Notes under the pieces: generated by a model
Seen by the model: the letters and a program-made list of their open reading frames with translations, nothing else
Told to the model about the DNA's origin: nothing
Databases searched by the model: none
Position numbers and translations under genes: made by a program
Assembly: GCF_006345805.1 (NCBI RefSeq)
Contig: NC_043003.1
Coordinates: 16,182,001 to 16,246,000, forward strand
Direction of reading: 5' to 3'
DNA length: 64,000 nucleotides
Source of the DNA: Octopus sinensis
Lineage: Eukaryota
In this document: piece after piece, positions 39,462 to 40,210 of the stretch
Layout of the letters: every line of letters begins with the position of its first letter
Position numbering within the stretch: the first letter of the stretch is position 1

Positions 39462-40210
39462 TCTATAATTATGAGCATAATTATAATTAGGGTTCAGCAA
39501 AATTCGCTTCACCACATAACCGGAATTTAGAAATAACAGTTAAACTACTATTTTACTACCATAAGATATCTCCCAGATAGCAAATACTCAACAACCCACG
39601 CAGGTAAAGAGAAAAAAAAATAACGAATCCACCCGGCTTTGATTAACTGTATACGCGTTTCGGAGTTAGAGAGATGGGAAAAAATGTAAAATCATATTTC
39701 CACTCTATCATTCTCCTCTTCAGTACAGTAATTCAAGATTTTAAATTTTAAAGCACTGATAATTAACATACGTATTTGACCAAGCGACATCAAACAGCAT
39801 ATATCCAAAGACCAGTATTTCAAAATTCAAACAGACGAATGAGATCTCGCATTCCTCCTCACTCACCCACGTGTGCCAGCGAGTAAAATTCCGCAGAAAC
39901 TGCAGTTTACTATCAGGGAGAGAATTATATTATCAATAATAATAAAGGGTAAAATTAATTAATTAATTAATAATTTTACCAAGTAGTTCGGTATGTTAAA
40001 AGAACCATTATCGGTAAACTTATACAAAAAGTCTATAATTACGAGTATAATTATAATTAGGGTTCAGCAAAATTTGCTTCACCACATACCGAAGTTGAGA
40101 AATAGCAGTTAAACTACTATTTTACTACCATTCGTCTGTTTGAATTCGGAAGTACTGGTCTTTGGATATTTGCTGTTTGATGACGCTTGGTCAAATACGT
40201 ATGTTAATTA
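39462..40210 (-). mobile_element. Penelope-pLTR/retrozyme-like element: 100-bp direct repeats (570-bp period) plus inverted segment
   Basis: Repeats 39462-39562 and 40032-40131. 40129-40210 is an inverted copy of 39760-39841. Nested in SINE-A 39145-40450. Confidence 0.8.
39646..39729 (-). ncRNA. Type I hammerhead ribozyme, canonical core
   Basis: Minus strand actgta-CTGAAGA-ggag..(long loop)..ctcc-GAAA-cgc-GTA-tacagt. 6-bp helix I, palindromic ACGCGT helix III. Confidence 0.85.

Follow-up and report, generated by a model that had tools for sequence, protein, structure and literature searches.

The locus at 39398-40211 of the window (the whole 64,000-nt stretch of DNA that was analyzed) raises the question of whether a hammerhead-like motif flanked by direct and inverted repeats reflects a mobile element that spreads through RNA or an incidental product of local rearrangement. 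The reading favored here, with a probability of about 0.65, is that of a non-autonomous Penelope-like element (PLE), i.e., an animal non-LTR retrozyme, whose inserted copy has since decayed. Retrozymes are already known as a class, and the focal family probably represents one more family of the animal non-LTR type.

Two direct repeats of ~101 nt (39462-39562 and 40032-40131; 92% identity; E = 2e-36) are spaced 570/569 nt apart and can be extended to 39458 and 40028, with 8 mismatches and one gap in 105 columns. A second pair (39759-39841 and 40129-40211) is inverted and 94% complementary (E = 2e-31), and its inverted segment overlaps the direct copy by 3 nt, CAT, at 40129-40131. The preliminary description had the direct repeats (~100 bp) and their 570-nt spacing right and recognized an inverted internal segment, which is 83 nt rather than 82 bp long; its further reading of an inverted pLTR does not hold, as the inverted piece is internal (39759-39841) and not terminal. 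In the RNA sense (minus strand), the insertion opens with the inverted internal piece, followed by a 100-nt cassette, a tail of ~105 nt, the ~380-nt rod that bears the hammerhead, a second cassette, and (TA)n (Table 1). The direct sequence at the locus amounts to 670 nt, or 1.18 units, and the hammerhead sits outside the repeated 101 nt and hence is present once. With a single hammerhead and a single cut, the focal locus is unable to release a 570-nt monomer.

Table 1. Features of the focal insertion and of its closest relative in the window
Feature	Position	Strand	Basis
(TA)n-rich microsatellite, target at the 3' end of the element	39398..39457		Sequence; family ends at equivalent 40034 enter TATATA
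3' cassette, downstream copy, ending at the putative start of reverse transcription	39458..39562	-	Repeat alignments
Branched rod of ~380 nt containing the hammerhead, predicted stable on the minus strand only	39563..39945	-	Predicted fold
Type I hammerhead, predicted cut between 39652 and 39651	39646..39729	-	Motif scan, pairing probabilities, co-fold
47-nt stem-loop extension of helix II replacing the short loop 2	39666..39712	-	Predicted fold; diverged contigs
Long side hairpin directly upstream of the hammerhead	39740..39831	-	Holds two of three two-sided compensatory pairs (39822:39749, 39793:39776)
"Tail" of ~105 nt beyond the main 3' end, overlapping the start of the next unit	39926..40031	-	Also in relative at 35535-35646
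Compact domain around the main 3' end, possible signal for RT binding or initiation	39987..40093	-	10-bp closing helix, predicted
Upstream 5'-truncated copy (pLTR-like partial tandem), ending at the rod base	40032..40131	-	Repeat alignments, fold
Inverted copy of internal 39759-39841 with 3-nt microhomology joint; 5' end of the insertion	40129..40211	+	Repeat alignments
Palindromic insertion related to the focal one; each arm has the cassette, one has the tail, and (TA)n borders either end	35341..35646	+	Alignments

The unit has a GC content of 33% and, as previously noted, no ORF: between stops, frames extend to at most 62 codons whether the unit is linear or circularized, and no ORF for a reverse transcriptase (RT) plus GIY-YIG protein is found in the unit or nearby. 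The surrounding window is AT rich (26 to 42% GC per 2 kb), with many microsatellites and short repeats, and a scan in bacterial mode found no tRNA genes in it. At the left end, where the element meets the (TA)n tract, no target-site duplication is recognizable by eye.

The hammerhead (minus strand, 39729-39646) has the intact core CUGAAGA...GAAA-CGCG-UA, with a 6-bp helix I, a 4-bp helix II, and a helix III reduced to one pair plus a palindromic CGCG. The intact core, the 6-bp helix I, and the GUA site of the preliminary description are thus all present, and its term “canonical” suits the core and helix lengths but not loop 2, whose usual short form is replaced by 47 nt (39712-39666). A strict scan (helix I of ≥5 bp, helix II of ≥4 bp) finds two hammerheads in the real window and none in 30 block shuffles of the whole window; a relaxed scan finds five, against a mean of 0.1 over 30 block shuffles. 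Rfam gives no match at the gathering score across the window and, for 39300-40400 at E ≤ 10, eight weak matches without a hammerhead among them. The helix II extension is the likely cause of this miss. The absence of an Rfam hammerhead would also suit a chance motif within an ordinary local duplication and inversion, but that explanation is contradicted by the empty shuffles, by a fold that is strand specific, and by a multicopy family with (TA)n ends (see below), and it appears extremely improbable.

Pairing probabilities in the folded unit are 0.60 to 1.0 for helix I and 0.99 to 1.0 for helix II, while the A15.1-U16.1 pair of helix III stands at 0.0. Two copies co-folded through ACGCGU as a double hammerhead reach -44.9 kcal/mol versus 2 × -18.6 kcal/mol, and cleavage is predicted to need a hammerhead dimer. 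The same arrangement, a helix III of one pair plus a palindromic tetraloop, occurs in the newt/axolotl hammerhead HHR_Amex1, which works as a dimer, the monomer having only weak activity and the dimer being efficient (PMC7229834). As helix III is unpaired in the predicted monomer, failure of a monomer to cleave in an assay would not by itself refute the ribozyme idea. The helix lengths also bear on a second alternative, in which the unit is a hammerhead module repeated in the pLTR or UTR of an autonomous PLE with tandem ribozymes and copied without the ORF. Axolotl does have PLEs with tandem minimal hammerheads (PMC7229834). However, helices of 6, 4, and 1 bp fit the “canonical” retrozyme or newt type rather than the minimal PLE type (helix I of 4 to 5 bp, helix II of 7 to 8 bp), and no ORF lies nearby, which makes this alternative rather improbable.

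The 570-nt unit as a whole is predicted to fold far better than expected (z = -7.5); as a circle, it is 71 to 72% paired, with helices I and II formed. The rod (39563-39930) reaches -121.9 kcal/mol (z = -5.7) on the minus strand versus -65.8 kcal/mol (z = -1.4) on the plus strand, and over 39563-39945 it contains 28 G-U pairs against one A-C opposition. Each of three DNA-level palindromes in the window gives a similar fold whichever strand is taken, and their G-U pairs number 0 to 4, where the rod has 28 against 6. This contrast in strand specificity and G-U pairs indicates that the rod is not a decayed inverted duplication. Next to the rod, a 10-bp helix (40093-40084 with 39996-39987; pair probability of 0.95) closes a cassette-tail domain. 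The 35-kb relative has it as well, with each strand extended by 2 nt (10 to 11 bp across the two sequences), and this predicted helix, on the basis of these two sequences, may act as a protein-binding or initiation signal.

Variants in public contigs were compared with the predicted rod (34 rows among 40 listed of 152). Single-site variants break a predicted pair about as often as expected (16 of 34 listed versus 15.8). Among pairs varying on both sides, three of four are compensatory (39793:39776, 39822:39749, and 39848:39625) versus 0.45 expected (P ~0.008), the fold having been predicted from the focal copy, the rows chosen by the tool, and linkage on the same molecule not being established for all three. 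The compensatory pairs would thus back an RNA fold in a supporting, not a decisive, way. Eight of 10 pair-keeping variants among the listed rows are A/G changes opposite U, which could reflect A-to-I editing copied back to DNA or structural selection. The strand skew associated with editing (T>C per T versus A>G per A) gave P values of 0.044, 0.10, 0.061, and 0.54 in four runs (uncorrected and not independent), and an A-to-G skew as an editing trace is not established.

The inverted arm matches the majority letters of the family at three of its five differences from the direct copy. Where U-A pairs occur in the direct copy (39748-39749 and 39822-39823), most family contigs and the inverted arm of the insertion itself carry G-C type letters; there may have been two RNA templates, or the hairpin may have been corrected after insertion. 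At 40031, the public contigs favor the letter found at 39461 of the downstream cassette (G>T in 97% of depth).

Part of the stretch is contained in 20 of 24 listed public runs (10 studies, four organisms), none of which contains half of its words. No run containing it is listed as RNA, and rows with only a small share are not counted. Four runs (X1, X3, X11, and X17) were compared with one period, 39563-40131. There are 2,946 matching contigs in X1 (organism A) and 2,722 in X3 (organism B), with 30 of 30 bins covered in each, and most of these contigs are <99% alike. The unit is therefore a diverged, multicopy, dispersed family. Related copies, on whose existence the preliminary description had made its reading depend, are present both here and in the window itself (35341-35646). 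At 40034, 24 contigs of X1 and 21 contigs of X3 have loose ends that continue into TATATA; as 40034 is equivalent to the left end of the focal insertion, the (TA)n-joined end is a 3' end of the family. X11 and X17, which are only guessed to be RNA, also cover 30 of 30 bins, with a depth shape roughly like that of DNA, and their contigs are uninformative on ends, strand, level, and circularity. Cassette motifs had no matches in metagenome contigs, viral contigs, or prokaryote genomes, as expected for an animal repeat, and this is not counted as evidence.

Coverage along the unit is uneven. Summed depth in X1, which is not convertible to copy number, is 361,000 to 688,000 at 40038-40113, 127,000 to 186,000 at 39981-40037, and 2,500 to 25,500 over 39582-39942 (depth of 23 to 55 for single contigs among those listed). 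The cassette is thus roughly 10 to 100 times deeper than the rod, so that most cassette relatives belong to other or truncated elements. This imbalance fits a third alternative, in which two 5'-truncated pieces of the pLTR of an autonomous PLE, first a tailed end and then a tail-less copy, were joined by template switching and the 570-nt period is accidental. Three further points fit it: among the 32 records listed of 6,024, none bridges the tail-rod seam (39916-39963) by 31 letters to either side, with reads cut at 39947-39979; some contigs depart from the unit before reaching the hammerhead from its upstream side and have long unmatched parts (922 letters in record 26, for example); and single hammerheads come most commonly from truncated PLE copies (PMC4209133). 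Against an accidental junction, the predicted rod closes exactly at the seam, by pairing of 39945-39936 with 39562-39553. Diverged contigs among those listed cover 39563-39946 and 39933-40088 in overlapping pieces; four of the listed records extend from the rod to 39946, and record 15 of X11 spans 39933-40068. Depth also rises again at 39905-39942 (15,000 to 20,500), matching that of the pairing partner at 39582-39600 (15,300 to 15,600), a rise that truncation from one 3' end does not predict, and the unit has no coding remnant. Template switching therefore seems unlikely, and the 570-nt period is likely but not proven to be a family-wide trait, judging from the contig sequences. Several diverged contigs, among them records 1, 4, 5, 6, 25, and 26, extend across the 47-nt helix II extension.

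The relative at 35 kb (35463-35646) is 74% identical over 196 columns to 40113-39926. One of its arms is ~105 to 110 nt longer than the other, and it displays the usual PLE inversion form, an inverted 5'-truncated copy. Members of another family are also present in the window: a palindromic PLE-type insertion at 43097-43457, with a central type I hammerhead (cut between 43268 and 43269), a one-sided tail of ~85 nt, and 86% likeness to 22003-22179; a member at 22022-22300 (minus strand), whose hammerhead has a long helix II extension (cut between 22235 and 22234); and a palindrome at 62826-63151 with a one-sided tail of ~80 nt. The one-sided extensions of the 35-, 43-, and 62-kb palindromes match the PLE “tail”.

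Further hammerhead-like motifs and repeats are scattered through the window. A compact motif at 39328-39365 (plus strand), with one core change (CCGACGA), helix I of 4 bp, helix II of 3 bp, and a GGAA loop, reaches the (TA)n tract of the focal element ~35 nt later, so that two ribozyme-bearing ends lie tail to tail; a 19-nt partial match to it occurs at 48460-48478. The motif at 21893-21937 (plus strand) is a minimal PLE-type hammerhead (helix I of 5 bp, helix II of 7 bp) adjoining a short repeat with trinucleotide runs and then (TA)n, and that at 27523-27555 (minus strand) is weak (helix II of 2 bp by scan) and lies in an unrelated repeat. A 184-nt SINE-like repeat forms three tandem copies at 36932-37488 (93%), with inverted relatives at 37924-38286 and no hammerhead by scan. 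Broken frames at 3086-3427, 13830-14165, 42389-42949, 51326-51637, and 63537-63977 resemble, by eye, remnants of Tc1/mariner transposases.

A partial tandem, an inverted 5' piece, a tail, and a (TA)n target are described traits of PLEs (PMC8557442). The focal insertion resembles endonuclease-containing (EN+) PLEs, including Poseidon PAc of the anole, in its partial tandem, in the inversion on its 5' side, in a tail that may or may not be present, in a target of AT-rich DNA or (TA)n, and in 3' ends downstream of the hammerhead (PMC11167929, PMC8557442, PMC4209133), and differs from them in lacking an ORF for RT/GIY-YIG. Tails are ~80 to 110 nt in the window versus 30 to 40 bp in PLEs (PMC8557442). 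The usual PLE inversion is a 5'-truncated copy from the 3' end of the element, whereas the inverted piece of the focal insertion is internal and lies upstream of the hammerhead. The preliminary description's retrozyme-like reading of a Penelope-type insertion consequently stands with respect to the partial tandem, inverted 5' piece, tail, (TA)n target, and related copies, but not with respect to the form of the inversion. In L1 twin-priming inversions, as in the focal insertion, the 5' segment is internal and reversed, and a short microhomology marks the joint. Compared with them, the focal insertion has neither a poly(A) tail nor a clear target-site duplication, and the points at which one strand stops and the other starts are separated by 196 nt of template that includes the hammerhead. 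The PLE protein of the anole cuts and extends both strands (PMC11167929), and the inverted piece fits a second priming on the other strand. Of eight short motifs of the focal family compared with the supplement of PMC8557442, six had no match there and two had one match each, in sequence unlike the unit by eye; in two octopus Naiad consensuses, the ~600 visible terminal letters are unlike the cassette by eye, and no autonomous partner was found.

Among retrozymes, the unit shares with the metazoan non-LTR type (Cervera and de la Peña 2020, PMC7229834) its noncoding nature, low GC content, type I hammerhead, and highly self-paired form with helices I and II free to form. It differs in its 47-nt helix II extension and in that the focal locus, instead of an array, is a partial tandem carrying a single ribozyme. 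At 570 nt, it is an unusually long folded unit relative to the ~170 to 400 nt of the metazoan retrozymes in that work, and it falls within the 51 to 972 bp of vertebrate families in a recent preprint (bioRxiv 10.64898/2026.07.22.740005). The preprint describes monomer-type solo copies and proposes a PLE origin of non-LTR retrozymes; its link between the two is pLTR homology, and that of the focal family would be insertion anatomy. It defines active elements by at least two consecutive hammerhead units, and the focal locus, with 1.18 units and one hammerhead, lies outside this definition. The locus is best classed as a solo derivative, not an active element, and it is not an autonomous PLE. The preprint sampled 31 vertebrates, three insects, and one anthozoan, with no mollusc. 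A literature search for retrozymes or hammerheads in octopus or cephalopods, covering mainly open-access papers, found no title or abstract with such a family; an earlier description may exist in a subscription paper, in Repbase or Dfam, or in supplementary data. The repeat annotation of Octopus vulgaris reports 190 Penelope-like families (6.83%), and the words hammerhead, ribozyme, and retrozyme do not occur in its main text.

If the locus is indeed a non-autonomous PLE, its unit would consist of two modules: a ~380-nt rod presenting a dimer-type hammerhead and a second module of ~200 nt, made up of the cassette and the tail, to which the RT/GIY-YIG protein of a PLE, supplied in trans, probably binds. 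Tandem source copies would be transcribed, and adjacent hammerheads could, as in other retrozymes, pair via ACGCGU and excise monomers, which a host ligase may circularize. By analogy with the anole PLE, the protein would then nick AT-rich DNA, and reverse transcription would begin inside the RNA, with a main start near 39452-39464 or another ~100 nt further on, yielding tail-less and tailed ends; in the anole, the tail has been explained by two internal starts of reverse transcription downstream of the hammerhead (PMC11167929). Synthesis apparently ran for 670 nt, the length of the product in the sequence. A copy of 1.18 units implies a template that was either circular or an uncleaved tandem. 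The latter is somewhat favored, because hammerhead cleavage is dispensable for insertion of the anole PLE in vitro (PMC11167929) and only one of nine Xenopus dimers was cleaved in vitro; a circular template is possible but the less probable of the two. Finally, a second priming on the other DNA strand may have copied 83 nt from 39759, the product being joined through CAT.

The sister segments differ by a Jukes-Cantor distance of 0.06 to 0.08, i.e., ~0.03 to 0.04 per copy, which indicates an old insertion, and the focal copy is probably old and inactive. With a calibration quoted in PMC13282606, in which 0.09 corresponds to 25 million years, the insertion would be roughly 8 to 11 million years old, an estimate valid only for an octopus host and for two segments from one template.

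A bolder interpretation would see in the unit a still-expressed circular-RNA family of a lineage without a reported retrozyme (probably cephalopods), built of two separable modules. In one, the tail of the unit closes an RT-initiation domain common to very many PLE ends; the other, a double-stranded rod of great length, would through its G·U excess and A/G polymorphisms opposite U record A-to-I edits written back by reverse transcription. This interpretation is very doubtful. The gain from the non-autonomous PLE favored here is modest, because the class is known. Nevertheless, if the family holds up, it would extend animal retrozymes to a group for which the literature search found none and would link retrozymes to PLEs through insertion anatomy (tail, inversion, (TA)n target, and a copy longer than the unit), beyond sequence similarity. 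The cassette-tail helix around the main 3' end provides a concrete candidate structure for the internal initiation seen in vitro for one PLE, and the focal family could serve to decide between a circular template and an uncleaved tandem.
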